A stretch of 64,000 nucleotides of DNA, from NCBI GenBank assembly GCA_964397655.1, contig CAYNKA010000003.1, positions 323,890-387,889 of the forward strand, written 5' to 3'. The DNA comes from an uncultured Spirochaetaceae bacterium (GTDB taxonomy: Bacteria; Spirochaetota; Spirochaetia; DTKZ01). Under the pieces are notes generated by a model. That model saw only the letters and a program-made list of their open reading frames with translations, was not told the origin of the DNA and searched no databases. Position numbers and translations under genes: made by a program. Shown here one piece after another: positions 45,366-64,000 of this stretch; position 1 is the stretch's first letter; the number at the start of each line of letters is the position of its first letter.

Positions 45366-45376
45366 AAGGAGTGTTT

Positions 45377-46765: not shown

Positions 46766-47745
46766 AGGGAAAGACGGTAAAGATCATCGTCATCGTCGTC
46801 GTGATCCTCCTCGCCGCGGGGGGGTTCTTCTTCGCCGAGTACAAGAAACGGGCCGGAACCGGGGCGAAGAACGACCCCAAGAGCAAGCTCGTCCAGAACG
46901 TCGAAACGGTCTTCGCGGTGAACACCACGAAGGCGGTCCTCGGACAGATCAACGACTACATCGAGCTCAACGGCGACGTGGAGACGAAGTCGAGCGTCGA
47001 CATATACGCGGACACATCGGGCAAGCTCGTGCGGCTTCCCATAACGGTCGGCGACCGCATCACGAAGGACCAGGTGATCGCCCTCGTGGATCCCTCCAGG
47101 CCCGGCTCCAACTTCGTGGCAAGCCCCGTGAAATCGCCCATCTCCGGGACCATAACGAACATCCCCGTCTACGTGGGGAGCACCGTGACCCAGGCCACGC
47201 CCATCGCGAGGGTCACCACGACCGACCAGGTCGAGATCCGAACAGTCGTGGCCGAACGCTTCATCTCCAAGATGAAGGTGGGGCTCGAAGCCGTTCTCAG
47301 CTTCGAGGCTTACCCCGGGATTTCCTTCAAGGGTTACATAACCGAGCTCAGCCCGGTCGTGGATCCCCAGACGAGGACCCTCGAGGTCAAGCTCAGGCTC
47401 GCCCAGCCCGACGGCAGGATCAAGCCGGGCATGTTCGCCGCGGTCAAGATCGTCACGGAAAGAAAGACCTCGATCGTGAAGGTGCCGTCCGACTGCCTCG
47501 TCAAGCGATTCGGGGGAAACTACGTGTTCGTCGTGAAGGCGGACCCCGCGGATCCCGCCAAGACCGTCGTGGAGCGCAGGGAGGTGACTCCGGGCATCCA
47601 GATCGACAACAAGCTGGAAATCCTCTCCGGCCTCGCGCCGAACGAGGAGATCGTCTACCAGGGGCAGACGCTCCTCGAGGACAAGTCCCAGGTCAAGGTC
47701 GTCGGCAAGGTGGATCCCCTGCCCTCTACCGACACGGTCCAGTAG
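46762..47745 (+). CDS. Efflux RND transporter periplasmic adaptor (membrane fusion protein)
   Basis: ATGA overlap with the upstream gene. N-terminal TM helix, then lipoyl, beta-barrel and MP domains (HlyD_D23-like). Confidence 0.9.
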   Translation: MKGKTVKIIVIVVVILLAAGGFFFAEYKKRAGTGAKNDPKSKLVQNVETVFAVNTTKAVLGQINDYIELNGDVETKSSVDIYADTSGKLVRLPITVGDRITKDQVIALVDPSRPGSNFVASPVKSPISGTITNIPVYVGSTVTQATPIARVTTTDQVEIRTVVAERFISKMKVGLEAVLSFEAYPGISFKGYITELSPVVDPQTRTLEVKLRLAQPDGRIKPGMFAAVKIVTERKTSIVKVPSDCLVKRFGGNYVFVVKADPADPAKTVVERREVTPGIQIDNKLEILSGLAPNEEIVYQGQTLLEDKSQVKVVGKVDPLPSTDTVQ

Positions 47746-47754
47746 GAGGGCAAG

Positions 47755-50700
47755 ATGATCGCTAAAACAGCCGTTTCCCGGCCTACCACCTTCCTCATCG
47801 TATTCGTACTCGTGGTGGGTTTCGGTCTCTATACGGCGTCCGACCTTTCCATCGACCTGTATCCCGACGTGACCCCGCCGGTCCTGCTCGTCTTCACGAA
47901 CTACTCCGGCGTAGGGCCGGAGGAGATAGAAACCACCGTCACGCGCCCCCTCGAGGCGGCACTGAGCAACGTGGCGAACATCGACAAGATAACGTCGGTG
48001 TCGGCGGAGGGCTCCAGCCAGATAACCATACAGTTCGTCTACGGCACGAACATGGACGAGGCGCCCAACGACGTGCGCGACAAGCTCGAATTCGTGAAGG
48101 ACAACCTTCCCGACGACGCGACGACTCCCCAGATCTTCAAATTCGACCCGTCGATGATCCCCATCCTCATGCTCGCCGTGAAGGGAAACCGCAGTCCGGA
48201 GGAGCTCAAGAAGATCGCCGAGGACACGATCCAGCCCAGGATCGAACAGGTGGAGGGAGTCTCGCTCACCTCCGTGAGCGGGGGCCGCGAGAGGGCCATC
48301 ATGGTGGAGATCCCCCAGAACCGGCTCGAGGCCTACAACCTCACCCTCACGCAGATTTCCCAGAGCCTGAAGGGTCAGAACATCCAAATAAGCGCAGGAT
48401 CCATAACGGAGGGAAGCAAGAACTACCTCATCCGGACCTCGGGCGAGTACAAGACCATCGACGAGATCAAGAACACGGTCATCGCCTACAAGGGTTCGCA
48501 GTTCACGGCGCGGGAGGCCGGGGTCAAGAACAGCCAGGTCGTCAGGCTCCGCGACATCGCCAACGTGTACGACGGCTTCAAGAAGGAAACGAACAACGTC
48601 TTCATCAACGGCCAGCCCGGCGTGTACATCACCGTCCAGAAGCAGAGCGGAACGAACTCGGTGAAGACCGCGGACAACGTCATGGCGAGGCTCAAGAAGA
48701 TCAACCAGGAGATCCCTCGGGGGATCAGCGTGGAAGTGCTGCACGACACCACGAAGATCATCCGCAACTCCCTCGCCGAGGTCTCGTCGACCGCGACCTC
48801 CGGGGCCTTTCTCGCGGTCGTCATCCTCTTCGTGTTCCTCAGGAGCGTCAGGACGACCCTCATCATCGGCATCTCCATCCCGGTCTCGATCGTCATAACC
48901 TTCATGCTCATGTACTTCACGGGCCTCACGCTCAACATGATGACCCTCACGGGACTCGCCCTCGGGGTCGGCATGCTCGTGGACAACTCCATCGTCATCC
49001 TCGAAAACATCTACCGCTACCGCGAGAAGGGGACCAAGCTCACCGCCGCCTCCATTCTGGGCACCCAGGAAATGATCACCGCGATCACGGCCTCCACGCT
49101 CACCACCATCGTCGTCTTCGCGCCCGTGGTCATCTTCCGCACCGAGCTCGGCATGATGGGCGAGATGCTCGCGAGCCTCTCCTTCACGGTGGTAATCTCC
49201 CTCACCGCGAGCCTTTTCGTCGCGATCTTCCTGGTGCCCGTTCTCACGAGCAAGTACCTCCCGATCTTCTCGCGGAAGGAGGAGCCGCTCACCGGCTTCA
49301 GGAAGCGGATCGACGACGCCATGGGGAAATTCTTCGAACGCATGGACGAGGCCTACAAGAATTCGCTCCGCTTCGTCCTTAAGCACCGCGTCTCCACGAT
49401 CCTGGGAATAATCGTCATTTTCGCCGGAAGCTTCCTGCTCGTACCCCTGACGGGCTTCGAGTTCATGCCGACGATGCAGCAGGACTCGGTCTCCGTGAAC
49501 GTCGAGCTCCCCATCGGGACCAAGCTCGAGATCACCCAGTCGGTGCTCAAGCAGCTCGAGCTCATCGTCCAGCAGGAGGTCAAGGGCTACCAGAACATAG
49601 CGATCTCCGCAGGATCGAGGTCCTTCTTCGGCTTCCTGGGAGCGACGCAATCGCACAAGGGCACCATCTCGATCACGCTCCCGCCCTTCAAGGACAGGAT
49701 CGACGACTCCCATACCGTGGAGCAGAAGCTCAGGAGCCATTTCAACGATTTTCCGTCGGCGGTCTTCTCGTTCCGGCAGAACCGCGGGTTCGGCGGCAAC
49801 GCGAATCCCATCGACATCCTCGTGAAGTCCGACGACCTCGTAAAAAGCAAGGAAGTCGCGCAGAAGATCAGGGACATCATCAAGGCGGAGATCCCCGAGG
49901 CCACGGAGCCGACCATCGACCTCAAGGACGGTCTTCCCCAGGTGGAAATCATCATCGACCGCGACCGCGCCTACGACCTCGGCCTCAACATCGCCACCAT
50001 CGGCCAGGAGATCAGGGCCAACATCGACGGAATCACATCCTCCCAGTACCGGGAAAAAGGGTCCGAATACGACATCGTCGTTATCCTCGATCCCAAGGAC
50101 AGGGACGCGATTCCGGACCTCAACAAGATTTCGGTGACCAACTCCCAGGGCAGGAGAATTTCGCTCGCGAGCTTCGCCAGGCTCGAACGGACCACGGGCC
50201 CGGTGACGATCAACCGCGAGAACCAGATCCGCACCGTGCACGTCACCGCCGGCGTCCTCAAGGGCACCGACCTCAACAAGATCGAGACGGGCATCCGCTC
50301 GCTCATCACCGAACGGATACCGGCCGACGAATCCTACACGATCGAGTTCTCGGGCGACTACGCCGACCTCATGAAATACGGCTACAAGATCGTCATCATC
50401 CTCATCATCTCCGTAGCCCTCGTCTTCGGCGTCATGGCGAGCCAGTTCGAGTCCCTCCTCGACCCGTTCATCATCATGTTCACCATCCCGCTCACCCTCA
50501 TCGGGGTCATCGCCATCCACGTGCTCACGAAGACGAACTTCAGCATGTTCACCGCGGTGGGCATCGTGACGCTCGCGGGCGTGGTCGTGAACAACGGCAT
50601 CGTCCTCGTGGACTACACGAACATGCTCCGCAAGCGGGGCAGGCCCATCATCGACGCCTGCGTCGAGGCCGGCGGCAACAGGCTCAGGCCCATCCTCATG

Positions 50701-50976
50701 ACCACGCTCACCACCGTCCTCGGCCTCCTTCCCGTGGCCTTCGTGCAGAGCGAAGGGGCCGACCTCGTCACCCCCATCAGCAAGACCCTCCTCGGGGGGC
50801 TCTCAGTGAGTTCGTTCTTCACCCTGTTCCTGATCCCGGTGATCTACGCCATCTTCAACGAACAATCCGAGAAATGGAACCGGAAAAAGGAGGAGAGGCG
50901 CCAGCGGATCCGCGAGACCAGGAAGCGGACCATGGCCTCGGAGGCGGCGAAGCCCCAAGGAGGGGCGGAAGCATGA
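47755..50976 (+). CDS. Efflux RND transporter permease (AcrB/HAE1 or CzcA-like)
   Basis: 1073 aa, 12 TM helices, two large periplasmic loops. RBS GGAGGG. Confidence 0.95.
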   Translation: MIAKTAVSRPTTFLIVFVLVVGFGLYTASDLSIDLYPDVTPPVLLVFTNYSGVGPEEIETTVTRPLEAALSNVANIDKITSVSAEGSSQITIQFVYGTNMDEAPNDVRDKLEFVKDNLPDDATTPQIFKFDPSMIPILMLAVKGNRSPEELKKIAEDTIQPRIEQVEGVSLTSVSGGRERAIMVEIPQNRLEAYNLTLTQISQSLKGQNIQISAGSITEGSKNYLIRTSGEYKTIDEIKNTVIAYKGSQFTAREAGVKNSQVVRLRDIANVYDGFKKETNNVFINGQPGVYITVQKQSGTNSVKTADNVMARLKKINQEIPRGISVEVLHDTTKIIRNSLAEVSSTATSGAFLAVVILFVFLRSVRTTLIIGISIPVSIVITFMLMYFTGLTLNMMTLTGLALGVGMLVDNSIVILENIYRYREKGTKLTAASILGTQEMITAITASTLTTIVVFAPVVIFRTELGMMGEMLASLSFTVVISLTASLFVAIFLVPVLTSKYLPIFSRKEEPLTGFRKRIDDAMGKFFERMDEAYKNSLRFVLKHRVSTILGIIVIFAGSFLLVPLTGFEFMPTMQQDSVSVNVELPIGTKLEITQSVLKQLELIVQQEVKGYQNIAISAGSRSFFGFLGATQSHKGTISITLPPFKDRIDDSHTVEQKLRSHFNDFPSAVFSFRQNRGFGGNANPIDILVKSDDLVKSKEVAQKIRDIIKAEIPEATEPTIDLKDGLPQVEIIIDRDRAYDLGLNIATIGQEIRANIDGITSSQYREKGSEYDIVVILDPKDRDAIPDLNKISVTNSQGRRISLASFARLERTTGPVTINRENQIRTVHVTAGVLKGTDLNKIETGIRSLITERIPADESYTIEFSGDYADLMKYGYKIVIILIISVALVFGVMASQFESLLDPFIIMFTIPLTLIGVIAIHVLTKTNFSMFTAVGIVTLAGVVVNNGIVLVDYTNMLRKRGRPIIDACVEAGGNRLRPILMTTLTTVLGLLPVAFVQSEGADLVTPISKTLLGGLSVSSFFTLFLIPVIYAIFNEQSEKWNRKKEERRQRIRETRKRTMASEAAKPQGGAEA

Positions 50977-51263
50977 AGCGCATGGAAATAATCCTGAACC
51001 ATTCCATCGAGGAAGACCTTCTCGAGCTGCTCTCCCGGAAGAAGGTCGCCGCGAAGTACACGCGGTATCCCGAGGTGCACGGCGCCGGGCATTCCGAACC
51101 GAAGCAGGGCAACTCGGTGTGGCCGGAGGAGAACGTCGTGTACGTGATCTACTGCAGGGAGGAGGAGGCCGAGGTCATACGCGAGACGGCACGCGAGCTC
51201 AAAAGCTACTTCCCGAAGGAAGGGGTGAAGGTCTTCGAAACGAATGCCGAACAAACGGTCTGA
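50973..51263 (+). CDS. P-II-like small protein (DUF3240-like) translationally coupled to the RND permease
   Basis: ATGA overlap with the RND gene stop. RBS AAGGAGGGG lies inside the end of the RND gene. 96 aa with a beta-alpha-beta-beta-alpha-beta pattern. Confidence 0.65.
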   Translation: MKRMEIILNHSIEEDLLELLSRKKVAAKYTRYPEVHGAGHSEPKQGNSVWPEENVVYVIYCREEEAEVIRETARELKSYFPKEGVKVFETNAEQTV

Positions 51264-53463
51264 ACTGCTCGCGCCCGCGGGGGGCTTTTCCGCGGGCGTC
51301 TACGCCCTCAGGAACGGCGCGGACGCCGTGTACCTGGGCCTCAAGGCGTTCTCCGCCAGGAAGAGCGCGAGGAATTTCTCGCTCGACGAGCTCTCGGCGA
51401 TAAAAGCCTTCGCCGAGCGGGAGGACAAGAGGGTCTACGCGGCCTTCAACACCCTCGTCAGGGACGGGGAGCTCGCGGAGGCGGCGGAACTCCTCCACGA
51501 ACTCGAAGCCCTCGAAATCGACGGGGTCATCGTCCAGGATCTCGGCATGCTCCGCATGCTGAGGCGGCACTTCCCCGGCCTCGCGGTCCACGCCTCCACG
51601 CAGATGGCGGTTCACAACTCCGAGGGAGTCGCGTTCCTGAAGAGGGAGGGAGTCCGCAGGGTCGTCCTCGCCCGCGAGCTCTCCTGGGAGGAGATCGCGG
51701 CGATCCGCCGCGATCACGAGGACATCGAACTCGAGGTCTTCATCCACGGAGCCCTCTGCTATTCCTTCTCCGGCCTCTGCCTCGCCTCCGGCATGCTCCT
51801 GGGCAGGTCCGGAAACCGCGGAGAATGCGCGCAGATATGCCGGAGCTGGTTCGAGTCGGACGGCGTCGAAAGCCTTCCTCCCCGGGGTTATTATTTCTCA
51901 TGCAACGACCTTTGGGCGGGCGACGAGGTCCTCCGCCTGCAGGAGCTCGGAGTCGATTCCTTCAAGATCGAGGGCCGCATGAAGCCTCCCGAATGGGTGA
52001 GCGCGGTCGTCTCCTATTACAGGACCATCCTCATCGGAGGCAGGGAAAAGACGAAAGCCGAGGCCGCGGAGAAAGCCCGTACGATCTTCTCCCGGCGCAC
52101 GACCAGGGGCTACGGTCCCGCGGCCGGGGGCGAAAACATACTCTCCGCGGACTATCCCGGCCACCGCGGCATACCGGCGGGGACCGTGGAATCGGTGAGG
52201 CGGGAAGGCTTCGTGCTCGTGCTCGAAACCGATCTCTCCCTCCGCGACGGACTCCTCTTCTTCCAGAAGACGGGGAGCGGGGACTTTCCCAGGCCGGTCC
52301 CCTTCGCCGCGACCTTCCCGGCCGAGGAGCGAAGGACCTCCGCCCGGGCCGGGGAACGCGTCCTCGTCGCCTCGGAGCCGCTTCCCGGGATCGGCGACCG
52401 GGTCTACAAGATTTCCTCGCATTCCGCGGCGCTTCCCGAGGTGACGGAAAATTTCCCGAAGAAGACCATCCCCGTCGCGCTCGCGGTAAGGCTCCTTCCC
52501 GGCGAGATCCGCCTGGAATTCATCCCCGGGAAACCGCTCCTTCCCCCCGCGGTCTTCTCGCGGACGATCAGGGTGGAGGGCGCGAAGAAGGCCAGGCCGT
52601 TCCGCGACGTGGTCGAGGAGAGGCTTTCCGCGCCGGGGGACTCCCGCTTCTCGGTAGAATCGTTCGCCTTCGTCAACGAGTCGGGCTTCGGCGACGAGGG
52701 GATCTTCGTCAATCCCTCCGAGCTCAAGGAGACGAGACGCTGGGCCTTCGCCCTCCTCGAGGAGGCGTACGTGTCGGCTCGGACGGCGCGGGCGGCAGCA
52801 GCGACGGGAGGCGCCGGGAATGCGGCAGTGAAGCCGGATCCTCTCCCCGATCCGGGTTTCCGCATACCCGAGCGTGCCCTCGTCGCCGACCGTGAGACGG
52901 GGCTCCCCTTCGTAGCGGACCCCCGGCAGCTCGCGATCGGGCGCCTCCACCGCTCCGAAGACGGCTTCGCGTATCTCGCCCTCGCGCCGGTGCTGTTCCG
53001 CGCCTCGGACTACCTCGCCCGGGTCGAGGCATTCATCCGAAGGTCCCTGCGGGAGGACGGAGGAATCCGCTTCCGGATCGGCCTCGGCAACGTCGGGCAC
53101 CTCGGCTTCGCCTCCTCCTTCGCGGAGGAGGAAAGGGTCGAGTTCTTCGCTGACTGGGGCCTGTACGCGGCGAACCGCGAAACGATCCGCCTGCTTCGCG
53201 AGCGCGTTCCGCGTCTATCGTTCTATTATCCGTGGATTGAAAACCCCGCTCCCGCAGGAGCCGGCCTGCCCGCGGGGCGGTTCGGGAATTTCAAGCCCCC
53301 CCTTTTCCTGAGCAGGGCCTGCGTGTGGAAGCAGGCGGCCGGCGCCTCGTGCGAAGGCTGCGCCGCGGACCGTTCGACCCTCGTCCGGCAGGGGAAGAGG
53401 AGCTTCCGTCTCCGGACGGTGCGCGTCGCGGGCTCCTGCATCTCCCTGCTGTCCGAGGCATGA
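51244..53463 (+). CDS. Peptidase U32 family protein (collagenase-like, PrtC/YegQ-like) with long C-terminal extension
   Basis: U32 core LLAPAGGFSAGVYALRNGADAVYLG and the E..hGALCYSFSG.C catalytic signature. 739 aa. Confidence 0.85.
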   Translation: MPNKRSELLAPAGGFSAGVYALRNGADAVYLGLKAFSARKSARNFSLDELSAIKAFAEREDKRVYAAFNTLVRDGELAEAAELLHELEALEIDGVIVQDLGMLRMLRRHFPGLAVHASTQMAVHNSEGVAFLKREGVRRVVLARELSWEEIAAIRRDHEDIELEVFIHGALCYSFSGLCLASGMLLGRSGNRGECAQICRSWFESDGVESLPPRGYYFSCNDLWAGDEVLRLQELGVDSFKIEGRMKPPEWVSAVVSYYRTILIGGREKTKAEAAEKARTIFSRRTTRGYGPAAGGENILSADYPGHRGIPAGTVESVRREGFVLVLETDLSLRDGLLFFQKTGSGDFPRPVPFAATFPAEERRTSARAGERVLVASEPLPGIGDRVYKISSHSAALPEVTENFPKKTIPVALAVRLLPGEIRLEFIPGKPLLPPAVFSRTIRVEGAKKARPFRDVVEERLSAPGDSRFSVESFAFVNESGFGDEGIFVNPSELKETRRWAFALLEEAYVSARTARAAAATGGAGNAAVKPDPLPDPGFRIPERALVADRETGLPFVADPRQLAIGRLHRSEDGFAYLALAPVLFRASDYLARVEAFIRRSLREDGGIRFRIGLGNVGHLGFASSFAEEERVEFFADWGLYAANRETIRLLRERVPRLSFYYPWIENPAPAGAGLPAGRFGNFKPPLFLSRACVWKQAAGASCEGCAADRSTLVRQGKRSFRLRTVRVAGSCISLLSEA

Positions 53464-53508
53464 GGCGGAGTCCGGGCCCCTCTTCGCCGGCCTCCGGACG
53501 GCCGCCTC
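53462..53508. terminator. Compound hairpin between convergent genes (candidate bidirectional terminator)
   Basis: Outer stem GAGGCGG/CCGCCTC spans both stop codons (U32 TGA and the giant-gene TGA). It encloses an inner TCCGG/CCGGA stem. Confidence 0.35.
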
Positions 53509-56500
53509 ACTTGACCACCATCACCTTTCTGATCTCGTCGATGTCGGGTCCCACGACGCGCACGAAATAGATGCCGCGCGCCACGACCCGGCCTCCCATG
53601 TTTTTCCCGTCCCAGGTATAGGTGTAGCTTCCCTTGCCCTGGTTGCCCCGGTGCAGGACGTAGACCAGGCTGCCGTCGAGCGAGAACACCTGGGCCGAGA
53701 CCATGCCGGACCGCGAGAGCTCGTAGGTGAGGATCGCCTTTTCGGCGTTCTCCGGATTTATCACGTTGTTGAAGATGCTCACGCCGGCCCGCTGGGTCTT
53801 GCCCTTGTCGAGGTTGAAGCTCCAGGGGGCGAGGCTCGTCGGCGTCGAGGCGTCCGTGAGTCTCGCGCAGAACAGGTTCCCGAGCCGGAAGATGAATTCG
53901 ATCTTCTTTCCGGCCTCCATCTCGGAGTCGGTTTCGGGTATGAGGAAATTCCTGAGCGCCCCGGAGACGGAGTACGGGCTCACGCCTCGGGCTCCGGTGT
54001 TCGCGAGGGGGTTGAGCCCCTCGATGCGGATCGGCAACCAGATCGCCGGGAAGTTGACCATCGCGTCGTCGTCGGAGACGTTGAAGTACTTCGAGTCCAC
54101 GTCCGCGTCGAAGAACAGGGTGAGCGGAAGGTTCGTGTAGCCGCTCGCGGCGATCTGCGCCTGGAGGATGACGTCCAGGGGCCTGAGCCGGCCCGTTCCG
54201 TCGAAGGTCCTGAGCGAGGACGAGGTCCCGCCCACGGATTCCGAGTTGATTCCGTCCGAGGCCCAGAGCGGCGAGACCACGCCGAGCCCCACGTCCGTGA
54301 TGCGGTGGACGTCGGTGTCGAGCATGGCGTTCTCGGAGTCGTCGAACACGGTGTTGACCGTCGCCACCTTGAGCGTCGCGCCCACCGCGTCGTTCGCGGT
54401 GATCGCCCGGTTGAGGTTGAACCAGGCGTCCCATACGCTGTTGGAGCTGCTTCCCCGGGTGATCACGTCCATTCCGGTTATGGTGAAGGCGTCGCCCACG
54501 AAGGCGAACTGGGAAGCGCTCACTTGAGCGCTCTTGTCCTTGGAGCCGAAGACCGGTTCGGTGAATTTCACGTACATCCTCGTGTCCCCGACCGATGCGA
54601 GGGTGAGCTGGATTCTGGGAGGCACGCGCTCGATGATAGCGATCGGCGTCGTCGAGGAGGGAAGAAGGTTCCCGGCGAGGTCGGTGATGTACGCCTTCGT
54701 CGCGTCGTAGCTCACGTACATCTCCGTGGTGAGGCCCCAGGGATGGCCCGAATCCGCCAGCGTGAGCGTGAAATAGGGGTCGTCCGGGAGGTTGCCGGTG
54801 AAGCCGGAACTCGCGGGCACGAAGAGGCTGTTGTTGACGTCTGAGATGAGGCCCTGGTTGAAGGTGTTGACGAGGGGGCTCACCCCGACCTGTTCGACGT
54901 AGAAGGCCTCGTATTCGTTGAGCGAATCGAGATCGTAGTTCAGCGTCCTGTCCCTGACGCCGCGCGGGACGTCGGGCTGCCCGATGGACGTGCGATAAAC
55001 GGTTCGTCCCGGCATGTCGGGGTGCGCGAGGGGAACCGTCGTGGTCGTTGGATTCCAGTCCGCGTCCTCCGAGGAGTTGTCCTGGATGAAGAATTCCAGG
55101 CGGTTCACGAGGTTCGTGGTGGTCGTAGCGCGGGAGACTATTTCATAGCTCGTGCCCGGGATGAAGGTCGAGAAGCAGGGCGGGTCCGTGTCCCAATAGG
55201 CGTAGAATCCTCCGCCCAGGGTGTAGGGGACGAAGGTTCCGGCGTAGGGAGCCACGGTGCCGTCCACCGCATTCGGCGTCACGGCCTTGTCGCGAATGAA
55301 GGAATTCGACGCCACCGTGATTCCCGTCGCGGCCGCGGGATTCGGCACGTTCGCATGCCATCCCGGCCACCGCGGGTCCGCGGTGCTGCCGGTGGCGTTC
55401 CAGCCCGAAAGGTAGATCCTGAGCCGGTAGTCGGCCGGCCGGTAGAGGGCGTTCGTCGGATCGATGCCGTCCCTCGCGCCGCGGCTCATGGCGGCCGTGC
55501 CCGTGTAGGTGTAGGAAAAATAGCCCGCGACGGTCGCGGTGCCGGAGGAGGCCGTCATATCGCCCCCCCACTTCGACGCCGCGTCGAAGGCGGCCTGGGC
55601 TCTGACGTTCGAGGCGGGCGAGCCCGCTCCCGCGAGCATCGCGGCGTCCGTTCCGACGTCGACCCGCTCCGAGTAGTAGAGATCGAAGAAGTTGTGCGCG
55701 TCGAAATGCGTGGAGGCCGGCGTCGAGTGCGGCGCCCGTCCGTACTCGATTTTCCAGAGCACGGGGCCTGCACGGTCCACCGTGGCGGTGTAACTCGCGA
55801 AAGTGTTGTAGCCGTAGCTCCTCGCGGGGTTCTTGTGACTGTCGAAGAAGGCGGTCTTCCGGAAGAACAGGTCCGGGAGGTTCGTCTTGTGCGTGCCGGT
55901 CCGGTCGGTGCTCGCAGCCTGCCCTTCGACGGGAGCTGCGCCTCCCGAGCCGACGGCGTCCGTGTTCCAGGTCCCGCCGACGACCGTGGTCCGCACATAG
56001 AAGGACGTGAGGTCGCCCTGCCCGTTCGTCGAGGTCGTACAGAGCGCGTCGGTGAAGGCGTCCGCGAAGACGAGGCCCGCTCCCCCGCCCGGCGTCGTCA
56101 GGGCGCCGGTATTCGTGTAGGACATGGAGGCCGCCGCGAGGGCCGCGTTGATCTCGTCGTTCGAGTTCTCGATCGCCTTGTTGAAGGTGAGTCTCACCAC
56201 GTTGTCCTTCACGGTCTCGACGAGAACGAGCTCCGGTCGGAGAAAGTCCCAGCCCGTGTTGTTTCCGCCGTCCACGACGTTGTTGTTCGTCTCACCGGCC
56301 TTCACGGATGCCGCGGAAACCCAGCCGCCCTCTGCGTCCGTGTCCGCGCCGTCCGCGGAAGAGAGCGTGCACCAGCTCACGGTCATGTTGAGGGCGACCG
56401 CGTACGAGGATGTGCCCCACATGGTCGCCGTGGCGGCTGCGGTGTAGTTGAAGACGGGGTGGTTCATGGAGTTGTCCGGGATCGCAAGGGTCCAGGCAGC

Positions 56501-59500
56501 GCTCCCGGTCATGGAGGTCCCGTTCACGTAGAAGTTGCCGTCGACACTGATCGTCGATCCGTCGAGCGGCGACAAGGCGAAGGCCGGGGCCGGCCCCCCG
56601 AAGGCGACGACGCTGTTCGCGGCGGCCGTCCCGCCCCCCGGAAGGTAGGCGATCCCGGTCTGCGTGTAATAGGCGAAGCGCGTGTCGTCGGAATCCGCGA
56701 TGTTCGTATCTCCGTTCCCGTCCCAGTCGGGATCGTTCGCGTCGTAGGCCGCGCCGAACAAGGCGAAGGCTCCCGTCGTCGAGAGGGTCCTGCCGTTGAG
56801 GTTCGCCGTTCCCCGGTAGCCCAGGAAACGGCCGCACGACAGGTTCGTGACAAGCCTGACCGTGACGCCCGGCGTGTCGAAGTAGAGCGTCGTGCCGGGA
56901 AGACTTATCGTCCCCGCCCCTGCGTCCCAGTCGCCCGACACGGTCGTGCGGAGGCGCAGGCCTCCGGCGGTCGCGGTGTAGGTCTGTCCGTGGCTCGAGA
57001 CGTAGTGCGTCCCGTCGAGCTCGACGTAGCCCGTCGCGGTCACGCCCACGGTCCCCGCGGCGCTCGCGACGCCCGGCGAACCCGTTCCCGAGCCGATGCC
57101 GCCGAGGACGACGTTGTTTCCCGAGATCGTGAGGCTCTCGAGGGCGGTCGCGGTCGATGTTCCGATGATGCCGGACACCGTGACGTCGCCCGTTCCCGCC
57201 GCGAGGCTGAGGAGCTCGGTCCCGGTTCCCGTGCCCGTGATCGTGGAACCGAAGGAAACATTCCCCGTCGCCGCGCCCGTATTCATCGCCACGTCCCCGG
57301 TGAGGGTCACGGGCTGGGCGTTGAACGATATGTTGGCGTTGTTCGTCGCGATGTCCCCTGCGATGCTCACGGCGCCGGCTCCGGTCTTCGTGAAGGCCCC
57401 CGCGAGATTGAAGTCGGCCGCGGTATCGGCGGCTCCGCCGACGTCTTCGACGGTGAGGAGCCCGCCGTTCGACAGCGTCACCCCCCCTCCTGCCGCGGTC
57501 GTCACCGTGTTGTGAAAGGTCATGGCTCCGGTCGTCGTCAGGTCGATCCCGACCCCTGCCAATGCCTGGCTCGTGTTCACCGGCTGGAAGAACTCTATCG
57601 TAGCGACGGTCCCCGTCGTCACGATCCTCGAAGCGAAAACCTCGCCGTTCCAGGTAACCGCGGCCCCGCTCACGACCGTGAGCACGCCGATCCGGTTCGC
57701 CCCGGCCGCCCCGCCGATCCGCCCGTTCGCGGCCCCGCTCGCGGCTCCGAAGCTCACGTTCCCCGTTCCCGCGGTCACCGTGAGATCGTAGGGCGTGCCC
57801 GGACTGTCTATCGTCGCGGCGTTCGCGAACGAGACGTTCCCGATCCCGGCACCGGTACTCAGCGCCACGGCGCCGGTCAGCGTCACGGGGCCCGCGAACG
57901 AGATGTCGTCGGCCGTCGTCGTGATGTCTCCGGCGGTCGACACCGCGCCCGCCCCGGTCTGCTGGAAGGAACCGTTGAGATTGAAATCGGCTGCGGCCAC
58001 GATGGTGAGGAGCCCGCCGTTCGAAAGGGTGACCCTGCCGTCGCCCGTCGCGGTCACCGTGTTGTTGAAAGTCATGGCCCCGGTAGTCGTCAGGTCCAGC
58101 CCGATCGCCGCGGCAGCGTTCGTGTTCACCGGCTGGTTGAAGACGATCGAGCCCACGGTCCCCGTCGTCGCGATCCTCGAAGCGAAAACCTCGCCGTTCC
58201 AGGTAACCGCGGCCCCGCTCACGACCGTAAGCACGCCGATCCGGTTCGCTCCGGCCGCCCCGCCGATCCGTCCGTTCGCGGCTCCGCTCGCGGCTCCGAA
58301 GCTCACGTTCCCCGTGCCCGCGGTCACCGTGAGGTCGTAGGCCCCGCCTATCGTCGCCGCGTTCCCGAACGAGACGTTCCCGGTCCCGGCACCGGTGCTC
58401 AGCGCCACGGCGCCGGTCAGCGTCACGGGGCCCGCGAACGAGATGTTGCCGGCCGTCGTCGTGACGTCGCCGGCGGTCGACACCGCTCCCGCCCCGTCCT
58501 GCGTGAAGGCCCCGCCGAGGGCGAAATCGGCTGCGGCCGCGATCGTGAGCAGGCCCGTGTTCGTTACGGTCACGGTCCCCGAACTCGCGGTGGACACGGC
58601 GCCGTTGAAGGTGACCGCGGCGCCGTTCAGGTCGAGACCGCTCCCGCCCGTCATGACGAAACCGGCCTGGAAGATGTAGTCCGTTCCCGTCATGTCGTTG
58701 AGCGCTGCCCCGTTCGTGTCCACGGCCTGGTTGAAGGCGGTCGTCCCGGTTCCCGCGATCTGCCGGATCCTCGCCGCGAACACCTCGCCGTTGAAGGTGA
58801 CGTTCGCCGCGCTGTTGATCCTGAGGACGCCGATCCGATTCGCCCCTGCCGCCCCGCCGATCCTTCCGTTCGCCGCTCCGCTCGCGGCTCCGAAGCTCAC
58901 GTTCCCCGTGCCCGCGGTCACCGTGAGGTCGTAGGCCGTGCCCGGACTGTCTATAGTCGCGGCGTTCGCAAAGGTGATGTTCCCTCCGACCCCCGCGGTC
59001 GTGGAAAGCGCGACCGCTCCCGTCAGGGTCACGGCCCGGTAGAAATCGACGTTCCCCGCGTTCGTCGTCACATCGCCCGCGGTGGAGAGCGCGCCCGAGA
59101 GCGTCGCGCCGAAGGCGACCGTCCCCGCCCCGGTTGCCGTGATGTCGCCTGCCGGGGCGATCGTCGTCGTTCCCACGGAGTCGATCGTCACCGCTCCGGT
59201 CGAAACGTTGATCTGGGCGGATAGGTCGACCGTCGCTCCGGCGCCCGTCGCGTCGATATTCACCGCGCCGCTCCCGGAACTCAAAGCCGCAGCGATCGTG
59301 ACGTTCCCCGTGTGATTGATCACGATGTCGTTGTTCGTCGTCGTGATCGTGGCCCCGGTGTTGTCGAAGGTCGTTCCCGCGCTCGAGAAGCCCGAGGGCG
59401 TCGTCACGGTCCCGTTCAGGTCCACGGCCCCGCCGTTCGTGATGGAGAGACTCGCGGCGCTGAACGTGCTCGTCACCGTGACGCCGCCCGAGGCGTCGCT

Positions 59501-62500
59501 CACCGTGACCGTCCCGAGCTGAGTCGCGCCGACCCCTCCCGTGAAGCCGAGACTTCCGGTGCCCGCGTTCAGCGTCAGGGTCTGTCCTCCGGCGGTCGTT
59601 CCCGTGAGCGTCGAGGAGAACGAGATGTTCCCCGCTCCGGCCCCGGTGTCCAGGGCGACGTTCCCCGTGAGCGTCACCGCCCCGTCGAAGCGTATGCCGT
59701 CGTTCGTCGTCGTGATGTCTCCGGCGATGCTCACCGCGCCGGCGCCGTTCTGCAGGAAAGCCCCGTTGAGGCTGAAATCCACGTTCCCCGTATCCGCCGC
59801 GCTCGTCGTGTCCACGATGGTGAGGAGCCCGCCGTTCGAAAGGGTGACCCTGCCGTCGCCCGTCGCGGTCACCGTGTTGTTGAAAGTCATGGCCCCGGTA
59901 GTCGTCAGGTCCAGCCCGATCGCCGCGGCAGCGTTCGTGTTCACCGGCTGGTTGAAGACGATCGAGCCCACGGTCCCCGTCGTCGCGATCCTCGAAGCGA
60001 AAACCTCGCCGTTCCAGGTAACCGCGGCCCCGCTCACGACCGTAAGCACGCCGATCCGGTTCGCTCCGGCCGCCCCGCCGATCCGTCCGTTCGCGGCTCC
60101 GCTCGCGGCTCCGAAGCTCACGTTCCCCGTGCCCGCGGTCACCGTGAGGTCGTAGGCCCCGCCTATCGTCGCCGCGTTCCCGAACGAGACGTTCCCGGTC
60201 CCGGCACCGGTGCTCAGCGCCACGGCGCCGGTCAGCGTCACGGGGCCCGCGAACGAGATGTTGCCGGCCGTCGTCGTGACGTCCCCTGCCGTCGACACCG
60301 CGCCCGCCCCGTCCTGCGTGAAGGCCCCGCTGAGGTTGAAATCCGCCGCGGCGGCCATCGTGAGCAGGCCCGAATTCGTGATCGTCGCCGTACCGGTCCC
60401 GGTGGCGGTCACCGCGACGTCGAAGGTGAAGGCGTTGCCGTTCAGGTCGAGGCCGGCTCCGTTCGTGTTCACCGCCGCGCCGAAGTGCGTGGTCCCGCTC
60501 CCCGCGGTCTGCGACACCGAGGCCGCGTACAGCGTCGAACTCACCGTCACGTCGTTCGCGTTCGTGATCGAGAGGGCGTTGAGCCGGTTCGTTCCCGTGT
60601 TACCCACGGCCCCCGTGAAGGTGATGTTCCCCGCGGCTCCCCCGCTCACCGTGAGGGAGGAGTTTCCTGAGGTTTCGGAATGGACCGTGCTCTGGAACTG
60701 GACGATCCCGCCTCCCGTCGCCGTGACCGAGGTCGCGGTCGCCTGGAGGATCACGGGATCGGAGAAGGTGATGGTGCCGGCCGCTCCGCTCGAGGTCACG
60801 GTCGGCGTCGCGGCCGAGTTGAAGTAGATGTTCCCGCTCGTCGGATTGAGCGTGATCGTTCCCGTGGAGGTCGCGAGCGAACCGTTGATCCGCAGGTCGG
60901 CGGCGGGCGTGAGGTTGATGTAGCCCGTGCCGCCCGAGGCGTTCACCGCGGCCGCCACGGTGAGGTCTCCCGCATTCGTCGTCGCGTCGAAGGTTCCCGT
61001 TACCGTGCATGCGTTCAGGGTATAGCCGTCGGCGTCGTTCAGGGAGACGGCGCCGGCGTTCGTTATCGCGACGGTCGCGAAACCGTTGTCCGTCCTGTTC
61101 AGCGTGATCGAGTTCGTCCCCGCGGCGAGCGTCGTGAGACCCGTCACCGCGACCGCCCCGCTCTGCGTCACGTTTCCCGCGCTCGTGAGCGTGAAACTCG
61201 CGGCGCTCACCGCCGCGAGGAGGGAACCCGAGTCCTCGGTGATCGTCACCGCCCCGCCGGTCAGATCGAGGCTCCCGAAGTTCGTCGTGTCGCCGGCTTG
61301 GTCGCCCAAGGTTATGAGGTTCGCGCCTGCGTTCAGGGTGGCGAGGCCCGTAACCGCGATCGTCGTCGCCGCGGCGTCGGTGATGGTCCCGGCGCTCGTC
61401 AGGGTGAAGAAGCCCGAGGCGTTCACCCCGGTGAGGACCGTTGCCGAGTCCTCGGTCACGGTGACGTTCGTTCCGGAAAGGTTGAGGCTCCCGAAGTTCG
61501 TGGTATCGGTTCCGAAATCGCCGAGTACGATCGTCGTCCCGGCGGAGAAGGTCGCGAGGCCCGTCACGGCGATCGTCGTTCCGTTCGCGTCAGCGATGGA
61601 CCCCGAGCTCGTCAAGGAACTGTTCGTGTTGGCATAGAGATAGGTGATCGTCATGTCCGAGTCCTCGGTGACGGTCACCGTGTTCCCGGTCAGACTCAGG
61701 CTCCCGAAATTCGTCGTGTCGTCGTTGCCGATCGTTATGTCGTAATACGTCCCGCCGTTGTGGGCGTCCAGGGTGGCGAGTCCCCCGACGCTGATCGTCG
61801 TGGTCGCCGCGTCCGTGATGGTCCCTCCCGTCGCGGTGACCGAGAGGTTCGCCGCCGTGTTCACGTTTCCGAGGACGATCGCGTTCACGTCCACGAGGGT
61901 TACGTTGTTCGCGTTCGTGACGACCACGGTGCCGAAGTCGTTCGTCGGGGTGTCGAGGGTGATGTCGTAGTAGGTCGGTCCCGCGACCATCGCCGAGAGC
62001 GTCGTCGTCCCGCTCACGACGAGGGGCTGGGCGTTGTCCGTGATCGTCCCCCCGGCGCTGAGCGTGAGGTTCGTCGCGGTCACGCCGTTCGTGGTCGATA
62101 CCGTGTCGACGACGAGGCCGTCGACGTCCGTGAAGGACACCGTGGCCCCGGTTGCTCCGACCGCGAAGGTGTCCGCGTCGTTCCCGGTCTGCGTGAGGGT
62201 GAAGGTGCCCGCCCCGGTGAGGAGGAGGCCGCCCGTCACGACCGTTCCCCCGGTCTGGTTGACGCCGGTCCCTGTCCCGTTCAGGATCAGGGTCCCGCCG
62301 CCAGTGGCGAGGTTCGAGGCGAGGGTGAGCGAGGGCCCGTTCAGGCTGAGGACCGTGGCCGCGCCGTTCGTGGTGATGTTTCCGTTCACGGTCATCGCCG
62401 CGCCGAGCGTCGTGATCGTGACGTTGCTCGCCGTCGTTCCGGCGGTGATGGGCCCGGTCACGGTGAGGCCGCCGGCCGAGTCGTAGAGCGTGAAGGCTCC

Positions 62501-64000
62501 GCCGCGGGTGACGCTGCCCACGGTGCCTATGGTGTTCCCGACGTTGCCGAGATTCAAGGTCCCGGCCGCGGCGGCCTGGACTGCCGTGACCGTGCCCACG
62601 TTCATGGAGGCGTTCTGGCTGACCGCGCCGGTGATGTCCGCCGGAGCGGTCTGGCCGATCGCCAGCGTTCCGTTCGGCGCCGTGACCGTGCAGAGGCCGA
62701 CCGTGGTCGCGTTCCTGATCACGACCGCCGTGGCCGAGGCGCTCGTGGTGGATAGGGTGCCGGTGCTCAAGGCGACGGCCCCGTCGCCTCCGTCGATGAG
62801 GATCGTGCCCGACCCCGCTCCGATCGTTATCCCGGCGGCGAGGGAGACCGAGGTCCCCGCGTTGTTCGTCCCGTTCACCGTTATGGCGCCCGAGGTCGTC
62901 GTGAGCCCCGCGTTCACCGTGACGGCCGCGGTCCCGTTCGCGGTCAAGGTCACGTTCCCCGAGCCGTTTGCGGTCACGGCGTTGGAGATCGTGATGCCGC
63001 CCGTCGAAGAGACGACGGATACGGCGTAGTTTCCGACGGTTGTCGAGATCGTTCCGCCCGTCGTGACCGCTCCGCCGGCCGTGATGTCGATGAGGCCGCC
63101 CGAGGAGGTGACGCTTCCGCCCGTTCCCAGGGCGATTCCCGTGGCCTCGTTTATGTAGACAGCTCCAGCCGCGGTCAGCCTCAGGGTTCCCACGTTCGTG
63201 TCGAGGCAGGCCGTCCCGGTGCCGGTCCCGACGCCGCCCGCTGTATTTATGACGAGGACGCTCGTCGAGTTCGTCGCCCCGATCCGCGAGGGGTCCGCCG
63301 CCTCGACGATGCTTCCCGCGGTCGTGGTGAGGTTTATCTGGGCATTGCCCGTGGACTCGACCACATCCAGCGTCATGGTACCCGCGGACTGCAGGGTGAT
63401 CGCCCCGTTCCCGGTCTGAATCAGCGAATCCGAGTCCATCGTGAGTACATTCGTCGCCGTGAGACCGATCGTCCCCGCGCCGGTCGTTACGATATTGCCG
63501 TAGACCAGCATCGCGTTCGCGCCGGTCGTGTCGATCGTGATGTTTCCGGTACCGGACTGGATCGTGACGCCGTTCGCGAGAGTGAAGCCCGCACCGGAGT
63601 TGATGTCCACGACGCCGGTCCCGGCGGCCGAAACTCCGCCGTTAAGGACGATATTGCCGCTCGTGGAGGTGACGGTGAGCGCGGAGTTCCCCGTGGTCGC
63701 GAGGGAGGTGTCGACGGTGATCGCCGCCGCCGTGCCGCCGAGAATGGCGAGCGGGTCCGTGAAGGTCGCGGAGGTGACGTTGACGGCGCCGGAATTTGCT
63801 CGACCGATCGTGATCGACGAGAAGCCGTCCACGAGGTAGCCGATCTCGGTCGCGTCGAGATTGAACGTGCCGGTCGAGCCGTTTCCGATCCCGACGGTCG
63901 TGGCGGCCGAGGAAGGCTGGAGCGTCAGGGCGCCCCCCGTGCTCGACACATTCCCCCCGAGGCTGATGACGTTCGAGGTCAGGGTGATGAAACCCGATCC
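53507..64000 (-). CDS. Giant repeat-rich surface protein (more than 3480 aa in window, 5' end beyond window) with T9SS/FlgD-Ig-like C-terminal domain
   Basis: Open reading frame runs to the window edge. It is dominated by G/T/A/S/N/V-rich beta-helix/autotransporter-like repeats (GNITIDT..., TVTAGTGNVSFGAASGAANGRIGGAAG...). The C-terminal about 90 aa (...LTYELSRSGMVSAQVFSLDGSLVYVLHRG...YTWDGKNMGGRVVARGIYFVRVV...KVMVVK) resemble a Por-secretion-tail / FlgD-Ig sorting domain. Confidence 0.85.
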   Translation of the reverse strand, partial: GSGFITLTSNVISLGGNVSSTGGALTLQPSSAATTVGIGNGSTGTFNLDATEIGYLVDGFSSITIGRANSGAVNVTSATFTDPLAILGGTAAAITVDTSLATTGNSALTVTSTSGNIVLNGGVSAAGTGVVDINSGAGFTLANGVTIQSGTGNITIDTTGANAMLVYGNIVTTGAGTIGLTATNVLTMDSDSLIQTGNGAITLQSAGTMTLDVVESTGNAQINLTTTAGSIVEAADPSRIGATNSTSVLVINTAGGVGTGTGTACLDTNVGTLRLTAAGAVYINEATGIALGTGGSVTSSGGLIDITAGGAVTTGGTISTTVGNYAVSVVSSTGGITISNAVTANGSGNVTLTANGTAAVTVNAGLTTTSGAITVNGTNNAGTSVSLAAGITIGAGSGTILIDGGDGAVALSTGTLSTTSASATAVVIRNATTVGLCTVTAPNGTLAIGQTAPADITGAVSQNASMNVGTVTAVQAAAAGTLNLGNVGNTIGTVGSVTRGGAFTLYDSAGGLTVTGPITAGTTASNVTITTLGAAMTVNGNITTNGAATVLSLNGPSLTLASNLATGGGTLILNGTGTGVNQTGGTVVTGGLLLTGAGTFTLTQTGNDADTFAVGATGATVSFTDVDGLVVDTVSTTNGVTATNLTLSAGGTITDNAQPLVVSGTTTLSAMVAGPTYYDITLDTPTNDFGTVVVTNANNVTLVDVNAIVLGNVNTAANLSVTATGGTITDAATTTISVGGLATLDAHNGGTYYDITIGNDDTTNFGSLSLTGNTVTVTEDSDMTITYLYANTNSSLTSSGSIADANGTTIAVTGLATFSAGTTIVLGDFGTDTTNFGSLNLSGTNVTVTEDSATVLTGVNASGFFTLTSAGTITDAAATTIAVTGLATLNAGANLITLGDQAGDTTNFGSLDLTGGAVTITEDSGSLLAAVSAASFTLTSAGNVTQSGAVAVTGLTTLAAGTNSITLNRTDNGFATVAITNAGAVSLNDADGYTLNACTVTGTFDATTNAGDLTVAAAVNASGGTGYINLTPAADLRINGSLATSTGTITLNPTSGNIYFNSAATPTVTSSGAAGTITFSDPVILQATATSVTATGGGIVQFQSTVHSETSGNSSLTVSGGAAGNITFTGAVGNTGTNRLNALSITNANDVTVSSTLYAASVSQTAGSGTTHFGAAVNTNGAGLDLNGNAFTFDVAVTATGTGTATITNSGLLTMAAAADFNLSGAFTQDGAGAVSTAGDVTTTAGNISFAGPVTLTGAVALSTGAGTGNVSFGNAATIGGAYDLTVTAGTGNVSFGAASGAANGRIGGAAGANRIGVLTVVSGAAVTWNGEVFASRIATTGTVGSIVFNQPVNTNAAAAIGLDLTTTGAMTFNNTVTATGDGRVTLSNGGLLTIVDTTSAADTGNVDFSLNGAFLQNGAGAVSIAGDITTTNDGIRFDGAVTLTGNVALDTGAGAGNISFSSTLTGTTAGGQTLTLNAGTGSLGFTGGVGATQLGTVTVSDASGGVTVTSTFSAASLSITNGGAVDLNGTVTTPSGFSSAGTTFDNTGATITTTNNDIVINHTGNVTIAAALSSGSGAVNIDATGAGATVDLSAQINVSTGAVTIDSVGTTTIAPAGDITATGAGTVAFGATLSGALSTAGDVTTNAGNVDFYRAVTLTGAVALSTTAGVGGNITFANAATIDSPGTAYDLTVTAGTGNVSFGAASGAANGRIGGAAGANRIGVLRINSAANVTFNGEVFAARIRQIAGTGTTAFNQAVDTNGAALNDMTGTDYIFQAGFVMTGGSGLDLNGAAVTFNGAVSTASSGTVTVTNTGLLTIAAAADFALGGAFTQDGAGAVSTAGDVTTTAGNISFAGPVTLTGAVALSTGAGTGNVSFGNAATIGGAYDLTVTAGTGNVSFGAASGAANGRIGGAAGANRIGVLTVVSGAAVTWNGEVFASRIATTGTVGSIVFNQPVNTNAAAAIGLDLTTTGAMTFNNTVTATGDGRVTLSNGGLLTIVAAADFNLNGSFQQTGAGAVSTAGDITTTADDISFAGPVTLTGAVALSTGAGIGNVSFANAATIDSPGTPYDLTVTAGTGNVSFGAASGAANGRIGGAAGANRIGVLTVVSGAAVTWNGEVFASRIVTTGTVATIEFFQPVNTSQALAGVGIDLTTTGAMTFHNTVTTAAGGGVTLSNGGLLTVEDVGGAADTAADFNLAGAFTKTGAGAVSIAGDIATNNANISFNAQPVTLTGDVAMNTGAATGNVSFGSTITGTGTGTELLSLAAGTGDVTVSGIIGTSTATALESLTISGNNVVLGGIGSGTGSPGVASAAGTVGVTATGYVELDGTHYVSSHGQTYTATAGGLRLRTTVSGDWDAGAGTISLPGTTLYFDTPGVTVRLVTNLSCGRFLGYRGTANLNGRTLSTTGAFALFGAAYDANDPDWDGNGDTNIADSDDTRFAYYTQTGIAYLPGGGTAAANSVVAFGGPAPAFALSPLDGSTISVDGNFYVNGTSMTGSAAWTLAIPDNSMNHPVFNYTAAATATMWGTSSYAVALNMTVSWCTLSSADGADTDAEGGWVSAASVKAGETNNNVVDGGNNTGWDFLRPELVLVETVKDNVVRLTFNKAIENSNDEINAALAAASMSYTNTGALTTPGGGAGLVFADAFTDALCTTSTNGQGDLTSFYVRTTVVGGTWNTDAVGSGGAAPVEGQAASTDRTGTHKTNLPDLFFRKTAFFDSHKNPARSYGYNTFASYTATVDRAGPVLWKIEYGRAPHSTPASTHFDAHNFFDLYYSERVDVGTDAAMLAGAGSPASNVRAQAAFDAASKWGGDMTASSGTATVAGYFSYTYTGTAAMSRGARDGIDPTNALYRPADYRLRIYLSGWNATGSTADPRWPGWHANVPNPAAATGITVASNSFIRDKAVTPNAVDGTVAPYAGTFVPYTLGGGFYAYWDTDPPCFSTFIPGTSYEIVSRATTTTNLVNRLEFFIQDNSSEDADWNPTTTTVPLAHPDMPGRTVYRTSIGQPDVPRGVRDRTLNYDLDSLNEYEAFYVEQVGVSPLVNTFNQGLISDVNNSLFVPASSGFTGNLPDDPYFTLTLADSGHPWGLTTEMYVSYDATKAYITDLAGNLLPSSTTPIAIIERVPPRIQLTLASVGDTRMYVKFTEPVFGSKDKSAQVSASQFAFVGDAFTITGMDVITRGSSSNSVWDAWFNLNRAITANDAVGATLKVATVNTVFDDSENAMLDTDVHRITDVGLGVVSPLWASDGINSESVGGTSSSLRTFDGTGRLRPLDVILQAQIAASGYTNLPLTLFFDADVDSKYFNVSDDDAMVNFPAIWLPIRIEGLNPLANTGARGVSPYSVSGALRNFLIPETDSEMEAGKKIEFIFRLGNLFCARLTDASTPTSLAPWSFNLDKGKTQRAGVSIFNNVINPENAEKAILTYELSRSGMVSAQVFSLDGSLVYVLHRGNQGKGSYTYTWDGKNMGGRVVARGIYFVRVVGPDIDEIRKVMVVK
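58001..58475. repeat. Intragenic direct repeat copy A (about 475 bp, identical to 59816-60290)
   Basis: By eye, base-for-base identical to copy B. It encodes ...DGEGDRPLVDGAGELLELRG...-frame repeats of the giant protein. A further about 90%-identical copy lies at about 57450-57990. Confidence 0.7.
59816..60290. repeat. Intragenic direct repeat copy B (about 475 bp, identical to 58001-58475)
   Basis: Same sequence as copy A, 1815 bp downstream. Identity breaks at both ends. Confidence 0.7.

Follow-up and report, generated by a model that had tools for sequence, protein, structure and literature searches.

A giant gene and its modules

The window, that is, the whole 64,000-nt stretch of DNA analysed here, ends inside a giant gene of an uncultured spirochaete. 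The frame continues without a stop as far as the window edge, so that the 5' end is to be sought beyond it, and the start at 63949 in the list of open reading frames is not the true start of the gene. The downstream neighbours are a convergent U32 peptidase gene and then an RND efflux operon. The single hit of a terminator scan at the 3' end of the gene falls within coding sequence, and searches of the window for Rfam families and tRNAs give no hits.

In the direction of transcription, the visible part of the gene presents a set of stalk-type repeats, an array of modules designated A to F, and a long non-repetitive C-terminal module (Table 1).

Table 1. Features of the giant gene, in window coordinates
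Feature	Position	Strand	Remarks
Giant gene, 3' part	53507..64000	-	at least 3497 codons in the window
DUF5649 (PF18886) stalk-type repeats	61061..61900	-	period ~213-222 nt; 63-81% mutual identity
Module A, 188 aa	59789..60352	-	98.3% nt identity to module D
Perfect repeat copy in module A	59812..60283	-	aa 1240-1397 of the window-partial protein
Module B, 216 aa, diverged	59141..59788	-	missing from the JGI contig
Module C, 201 aa	58538..59140	-	76-78% nt identity to A, D and E; missing from the JGI contig
Module D, 180 aa	57998..58537	-	
Perfect repeat copy in module D	57997..58468	-	aa 1845-2002 of the window-partial protein
Module E, 191 aa	57425..57997	-	adjoins D on the downstream side in the gene
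Module F, 186 aa, diverged	56867..57424	-	last of the array
C-terminal module, non-repetitive, ~1047 aa	53507..56650	-	conserved across Spirochaetota
FlgD Ig-like domain (PF13860)	53552..53707	-	extreme C-terminus; 30.6 bits vs cut-off 27
Segment missing from the JGI contig, 1815 bp / 605 codons	58469..60283	-	equivalently 57997-59811

The stalk-type repeats score 72.5 bits against the DUF5649 profile (gathering score 25), in four stretches, and are a second, older repeat family. FlgD structures match the C-terminus of the protein with E about 1e-3. Structure modelling shows a beta-helix, adhesin-like fold for the modules and a right-handed beta-helical shaft for the protein; as modelled, this is a secreted fibre built on an array of ~190-aa beta-helix modules, probably displayed on the cell surface. 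Complete orthologues carry signal peptides, as judged by eye. Tandem Repeats Finder misses the module array, owing to a period longer than 500 nt and to the divergence of the modules.

An exact repeat within the module array

When the window is compared with itself, the two copies of the repeat agree base for base over 472 bp, both within the single minus-strand reading frame. Their offset of 1815 bp is 3 x 605 codons, so they are in frame with one another. The original prediction of a perfect 475-bp repeat at this spacing was right as to existence and distance and slightly long as to extent: the segments it named, 58001-58475 and 59816-60290, begin 4 bases too far in and are identical at 472 of their 475 positions, the three mismatches lying at the right end. 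The third copy it placed at about 90% identity also exists, as module E, at a slightly lower 87-88%: 87.9% over aligned columns against the 472-bp tract, 85.7% if gap columns are counted, and 87% against A and D over the whole module. Module C is a fourth copy. Chance origin of the tract is excluded, as the longest other exact repeats are 63 bp within the giant gene and 22 bp in the remaining 53.5 kb of the window.

The edges of the tract differ in character. Past its right end, at the same offset, some 180 bp of similarity remain (58469-58650), at 92% falling to 66-76%; beyond 58650 identity drops to a background of about 35%. At 57997 the identity breaks sharply, owing to eight extra codons inserted in copy A where the module ends.

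These features are best explained, as far as the sequence can tell, by a recent gene-conversion tract laid down between old paralogous modules; this is preferred to recent duplication because identity is confined to 472 of the 1815 bp. Duplication does operate in the family, to judge from near-complete tandem duplications in some orthologues (2077/2121 bp in L037, 1102/1110 bp in L039, and in L026, where the orthologue is split, a 2082-bp repeat at a spacing of 2058). Recent segmental duplication of a module is nevertheless a most improbable source of the present identity: the 472 bp fall far short of the spacing, two diverged modules stand between the copies, A and D differ at nine positions in their first 70 nt, and the flanks of the tract are only distantly related, so that most of the duplicated segment would need later replacement. 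Recent tandem duplication in particular is rejected, since identity covers 472 of 1815 bp; selection at the protein level is rejected as the cause as well, since synonymous sites are also identical.

In the proposed sequence of events, a recent conversion between the non-adjacent modules A and D would have made the identical tract, and a perfect tract of this length would then serve as a substrate for homologous recombination. Crossing over between A and D would delete 1815 bp in frame (605 codons: B, C and one module-equivalent), leave a hybrid A/D module, and shorten the beta-helical shaft by ~12-15 nm.

A second public version, 605 codons shorter

An independent contig corresponding to such a product exists. 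The JGI metagenome contig Ga0248168_1000033 (locus L001; IMG metagenome 3300022666) differs from the window by five substitutions over ~21 kb and by a clean in-frame gap of exactly 1815 bp. Positions 1-17225 of L001 correspond to window 41244-58468, and 16754-20942 to window 59812-64000: a single 472-bp tract has the outer flank of the A copy on one side and that of the D copy on the other. The missing segment comprises modules C and B and one repeat copy; what is left is one hybrid A/D module, and B-C is not elsewhere in the contig as checked up to 1278 bp past the window. Sequence resembling B-C may occur farther along in the JGI contig, in the 4.6 kb at the 5' end of the gene, which lie outside the window. 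The JGI gene call on the one-copy form is 5040 aa, which implies a window form of about 5645 aa. Two of the five substitutions fall inside the tract, where about 0.07 would be expected; this excess is unexplained by simple deletion, and may point to additional conversion or to a consensus built from copies that were not identical.

Thus, the gene has two lengths at the 472-bp repeat, whether the difference is natural or arose in one of the assemblies. The original prediction had offered two consequences of the repeat, loss or gain of 1815-bp units or assembly collapse; a contig without exactly 1815 bp means that at least one of these is true, as the JGI form is the product predicted for repeat recombination or for collapse. 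The balance tilts, though not steeply, toward a real variant, because the fragment that a collapse should leave over, B-C, is absent from the protein collection. Most likely, then, at least two natural length forms of the gene occur, of about 5645 and 5040 aa. Taken jointly, a conversion tract between A and D, a crossover deletion, and length variants in vivo make an account that we hold to be somewhat better than an even bet. Here we infer deletion in vivo rather than in silico, and with it a recombination pathway and a selective value, if any. With a single variant pair known, the window and JGI forms, nothing points to switching that is repeated or still under way.

The competing account keeps the repeat but makes the JGI form a collapse, in which the assembler passed from the flank of A through the repeat and straight on to module E, leaving out the B-C loop; biological length variation would then be not yet demonstrated. 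It is the weaker contender, with perhaps half the credit of the real-variant reading. A perfect repeat of 472 bp exceeds the k-mers typical of short-read assemblers. Shorter contigs tend to break within the orthologous giant gene: at 21 loci a contig end lies within 10 kb on the side carrying the repeats alone, at three on the opposite side alone, and of 53 loci whose upstream contig end is nearby, 46 have an open frame reaching that end. Precedent exists in BadA, whose repeats were overlooked by earlier Sanger sequencing (PMC8859334). Against collapse, a skipped loop usually persists as an orphan contig, here of ~1.5 kb with a product of ~450 aa. No such fragment is found in the protein collection, where the best match to B-C is 73% identical over 33%, and this collection does include JGI fragments from 1-2 kb contigs as well as other proteins of the JGI contig. 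Moreover, the two assemblies sample different populations, as substitutions separate them. Scans of metagenome contigs with the A-region protein and with a 39-mer at the tract edge give no matches; that collection evidently lacks the source samples.

Error might instead lie in the window: the loop could have been traversed the wrong number of times, B-C could stem from a different strain or from elsewhere in the gene, or consensus polishing could have erased slight differences between the two copies. At two sites of the tract the JGI copy disagrees with both copies in the window, so there is natural variation within it, and the true copy number of the unit formed by B-C and the repeat could exceed one. 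Even so, we think a faulty two-copy arrangement improbable. B-C is in frame, unique, and homologous to the adjacent modules; it fits an assembly graph only between two copies, and its placement thus requires at least two copies of the tract in the window's sample. Chromosome-level relatives also contain similar interspersed perfect repeats.

For practical purposes, the annotated length of such a gene is unreliable without long reads: two public versions stand 605 codons apart, and at most orthologous loci examined the contig stops within the gene. The pair would also be a natural example of both sides of concerted evolution, a conversion-made repeat together with the predicted deletion product in a sister population.

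Relatives and known systems

Among orthologues from chromosome-level MAG records, there are perfect in-frame repeats of up to 2 kb, for example 1044 bp at a spacing of 2910 (L061) and 1532 bp at a spacing of 1818 (L032). The C-terminal module defines a wider circle: a protein search returns five proteins at 35-45% identity, and 349 stretches are confirmed in GTDB species genomes, of which 80 were kept (27-50% identical, nearly all titled as spirochaetes). None of the protein-search relatives exceeds 45% identity over the C-terminal module, 57% over the module array or 73% over B-C alone. These proteins point to a large and so far unstudied family in environmental spirochaetes, made up of giant, secreted beta-helix proteins in which the repeat regions turn over fast and the ~1050-aa C-terminal module is conserved.

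A bolder proposal, for which we see a minor chance, is that this uncharacterised family of beta-helix proteins with the ~1050-aa C-terminal module constitutes a contingency locus of free-living spirochaetes. Constant intragenic conversion would keep the modules identical and so permit frequent in-frame change of fibre length; frameshifts could also switch the gene off, as the split orthologue L026 might illustrate. If this were so, surface reach, attachment, and susceptibility to phage or grazers might change.

That repetitive adhesins vary in length through recombination is well established, and the locus offers little conceptual novelty on that score. The alpha C/Rib proteins of group B Streptococcus, SasG/Aap and Esp have DNA-identical in-frame repeats, arranged head to tail in arrays of many units of ~240-390 bp; changes in their number alter protein length, and in such pathogen proteins repeat loss or gain alters antibody recognition. 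Here, by contrast, two diverged modules lie between the tracts, and one crossover would remove three module lengths. The original prediction spoke of antigenic variation; an immune sense of the word is doubtful for this protein because the organism is an environmental spirochaete. In other spirochaetes, vlsE of Borrelia and tprK of Treponema pallidum encode surface proteins diversified by gene conversion, with silent donor cassettes copied into one expression site. In the giant gene all copies share one reading frame, and conversion would homogenise rather than diversify. Antigenic variation of the cassette type is rejected: the window contains no donor copies, and outside the giant gene, over 53.5 kb, no exact repeat is longer than 22 bp.

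With the TpsA exoproteins (FHA, HMW1, EtpA, HxuA) the giant protein shares a right-handed beta-helical shaft, but the ~1050-aa C-terminal module and the FlgD-Ig-like end are foreign to that class. The TPS domain (PF05860) is absent from the N-terminal 700 aa of eight complete orthologues and from the extra 426 aa that the JGI contig supplies, the N-terminus of the window's own gene lying outside the window. TpsA systems have an adjacent TpsB (Omp85-type) gene; here the neighbour on the visible, downstream side is the U32 peptidase gene. A classical TpsA protein is rejected, as the orthologues lack the TPS domain. So is type IX secretion (T9SS) cargo with a type A C-terminal sorting domain: TIGR04183 scores 22.7 bits, below its cut-off of 23. 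The FlgD_ig profile PF13860 fits better. No T9SS components are found among the genes scanned in the 64-kb window.

DUF5649 has been listed as a stalk domain that does not occur alongside a known adhesive domain (Monzon et al. 2021, PMC8286594). The giant protein resembles the fibrillar adhesin-like proteins of that survey in having it; these are a bioinformatic class with no mechanism attached, silent on repeat identity and recombination.

A close parallel is BadA of Bartonella henselae, a trimeric autotransporter adhesin encoded by a gene of ~12 kb with a stalk of repeated modules; closely related strains have alleles set apart by multi-module blocks, a difference ascribed to recombination, and blocks of four domains were overlooked before long-read sequencing (PMC8859334). 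BadA is a trimeric coiled-coil and neck fibre with a beta-barrel anchor, as opposed to the modelled beta-helix and unrelated C-terminal module found here, and belongs to a host-associated alphaproteobacterium, where pseudogene donors flank it; around the giant gene of this environmental spirochaete no donor copies are seen within 53 kb. For block alleles of the BadA type there is one near-identical contig, possibly collapsed, that lacks 1815 bp with its breakpoint inside the repeat. Like BadA, the present gene encodes a giant fibre with long in-frame repeats, 472 bp of them identical, with further copies at 87% and 77%.

The repeat tract and the gene that carries it

Two stretches of the window, 57997-58468 and 59812-60283, are identical over 472 bases when the window is compared with itself at an offset of 1815 bp. 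The original prediction had placed 475-bp repeats at 58001-58475 and 59816-60290: the perfect repeat is real and the offset is exactly 1815 bp, as stated; the predicted pair starts 4 bases late and takes in 3 mismatches at its end (472/475 match). Identity ends abruptly at 57997; past 58468, similarity continues in the same register for ~180 bp, falling from 92% to 66-76%, then to a background of ~35%. The predicted third copy exists as module E, with 87.9% identity to the tract in aligned columns (87% across the whole module), a little below the 90% proposed; a fourth, module C, is 76-78% identical. Chance can be dismissed, because the next-longest exact repeat is only 63 bp within the gene and the longest is 22 bp in the other 53.5 kb of the window.

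The repeats lie within a single minus-strand reading frame that ends at 53507 and is open at the window edge, so that the window holds its last 3497 codons. The ORF list places the start at a GTG, 63949; the true start lies further upstream, because no stop intervenes between that codon and the edge (63950-64000); the gene call on a second version of the locus, the JGI contig, implies ~1540 further codons upstream, outside the window. The first ~2400 of the 3497 codons encode T/G/A/V-rich repeats. These include DUF5649 repeats (PF18886, 72.5 bits), which a survey of fibrillar adhesin-like proteins classes as a stalk domain (PMC8286594). At 61061-61900 lies a second, older family, made of DUF5649-type units with a period of ~213-222 nt and 63-81% mutual identity. 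Six modules of 180-216 aa span residues ~1217-2378. The tract forms the final 157 codons of modules A and D, which are not neighbours, as B and C lie between them.

Modules of the giant gene, in window coordinates
Module	Position	Strand
A	59789-60352	-
B	59141-59788	-
C	58538-59140	-
D	57998-58537	-
E	57425-57997	-
F	56867-57424	-

Alignment with relatives from many phyla identifies the ~190-aa module as a super-repeat found widely among 'beta strand repeat-containing' and filamentous-haemagglutinin-like proteins. Complete orthologues start with apparent signal peptides, judged by eye, and no TPS domain was found in the N-terminal 700 aa of eight of them. Together, these features point to a predicted secreted beta-helical fibre of an uncultured spirochaete, outside the TpsA family. 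The last ~1047 aa (53507-56650) are non-repetitive and end in an FlgD Ig-like domain (PF13860, 30.6 bits), which FlgD structures match at E about 1e-3.

The neighbours at 44238-53463 are a TetR regulator, the OEP-MFP-AcrB (RND) efflux operon that it regulates, a small P-II-like ORF and a U32 peptidase gene, downstream of the giant gene and convergent with it; no functional link between these neighbours and the giant gene is evident.

A second version with one copy of the tract

Exact look-up of the U32 peptidase led to JGI contig Ga0248168_1000033 (metagenome 3300022666; 289,911 bp), on which the giant gene is annotated as 5040 aa long. It and the window's source are separate records, and their RecO sequences differ. 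Where the two overlap, five substitutions and a single structural difference separate them: bases 1-17225 of the extracted JGI locus equal window 41244-58468, and 16754-20942 equal window 59812-64000. That is, the JGI contig has one copy of the tract and lacks exactly 1815 bp, in keeping with the prediction of contraction by 1815-bp units or of assembly collapse. Its single module opens with the 5' portion of A, continues through the tract and closes with the 3' end of D, after which E follows directly; the frame is intact. As the shared JGI stretch holds no match better than 86% to modules B and C, the two-copy form cannot be derived from it; the one-copy form would then be the derived state, whether the deletion arose in vivo or during assembly.

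We consider a real deletion variant the better reading, though not by a wide measure of confidence. The two records sample slightly different populations, as their sequence differences show, and the one-copy form, with no exact repeat longer than 58 bp, poses no assembly problem. Collapse of the JGI contig is less probable, and its support comes from the family at large, where shorter contigs struggle with the giant gene: of 80 orthologous loci, 21 have a contig end within 10 kb solely on the repeat side and 3 solely on the other, and the open frame reaches the contig end in 46 of the 53 loci with an upstream end nearby. A loop skipped by an assembler is, however, normally left behind as an orphan contig. 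The product of a B-C orphan (~450 aa) should then appear in a collection of 5.8 billion proteins that covers fragments encoded on JGI contigs of 1-2 kb as well as further proteins of Ga0248168_1000033; the best match there is only 73% over a third of the length, which argues for the deletion variant. A fault in the window's own arrangement is improbable: B-C fits only between two copies, which requires at least two tracts in that form. The true number of loops (B-C plus tract) could be higher than one.

Origin and consequence of the identity

Recent duplication is unlikely as the origin of the repeat: identity covers just 472 of the 1815 bp, the intervening modules are old and diverged, and the tract ends at an 8-codon indel on one side and fades through 92-66% identity on the other. 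A and D differ at 9 positions in their first 70 nt. This is the pattern expected of gene conversion between old paralogues. In a permutation test on runs of identical polymorphic sites, 0 of 5000 shuffles reached the observed A-D run (A-E and D-E, P about 0.016), which supports conversion between modules. Protein-level selection is excluded as the cause, because synonymous sites are identical too.

The tract also holds two of the five substitutions between the assemblies, against ~0.07 expected at the rate found elsewhere, 3 per 20,470 bp (Poisson P ~0.002). At 58334/60149 and 58420/60235, the plus strand has G in both window copies and A in the single JGI copy. The two changes leave the amino acid unaltered, and one of them matches the variant found in module E, which suggests further small conversions. 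The only differences outside the repeat, over ~20.5 kb compared, are at 57200, 46276 and 46278; through the last two, residue 301 of the outer-membrane efflux protein (OEP gene, 45377-46765) is Tyr in the window and Phe in the JGI contig.

A crossover between the A and D tracts would remove 605 codons in frame. Beta-helices have roughly 20-25 residues per 0.48-nm coil; by this general geometry, rather than from a model, the helix would be shortened by ~12-15 nm. The same block would be gained through the reciprocal crossover between sister chromosomes. Any selective role might lie in attachment distance, or in avoidance of phage, grazers or antibodies. Since nothing in the records examined points to a source associated with a host, it is doubtful that 'antigenic variation' applies in its immune meaning.

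Related genes and known systems

The C-terminal module was confirmed by tblastn in 349 stretches of GTDB species genomes; identity is 27-50% across the 80 loci kept, nearly all of them titled Spirochaetota. This ~1050-aa module, conserved across the phylum, is uncharacterised, with Pfam coverage of the last ~50 residues only. Three loci with a spirochaete-type module are titled Clostridiaceae (L013), Bacteroidota (L040) and Borreliella garinii (L054, a sulfidic-cave MAG); these titles probably reflect mistakes in binning or naming.

In behaviour, the nearest analogue is BadA of Bartonella henselae, whose alleles differ by blocks of stalk domains; four-domain blocks were overlooked there until long-read sequencing (PMC8859334). 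TpsA adhesins share a similar shaft fold, as predicted here; membership fails for want of the TPS domain. T9SS cargo was rejected (tail model 22.7 bits, just under the cut-off of 23), as was a cassette-type variation system, because the other 53.5 kb of the window holds no donor copies. The phenomenon is thus already known; what is new is its occurrence in an uncharacterised spirochaete protein family.

Perfect in-frame repeats are a recurrent feature of that family: among 12 orthologous genes on chromosome-level or very long MAG records, eight have repeats of at least 100 bp and four of 1.0-1.5 kb. The repeat in Ca. Marispirochaeta associata JC231 reaches 2077 bp. Nearly complete tandem duplications occur in L037, L039 and L026, and interspersed tracts of the window's kind in L061 (1044 bp at a spacing of 2910) and L032 (1532 bp at 1818). 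Within intact frames, every spacing is a multiple of three. In L026 (OY764342.2, 484-12973) the gene is split into overlapping frames, 484-6162 and 6098-12973, near the point where the copies of a perfect tandem repeat of ~2058 bp shift in spacing from 2058 to 2059. Either a sequencing error or a genuine frameshift, marking a pseudogene or a phase switch, could account for the split. The gene in L064 (CBDESZ010000025.1, 1948-9632) also appears interrupted: the frame of the C-terminal module opens only at 9632, with perfect repeats of 476-986 bp upstream.
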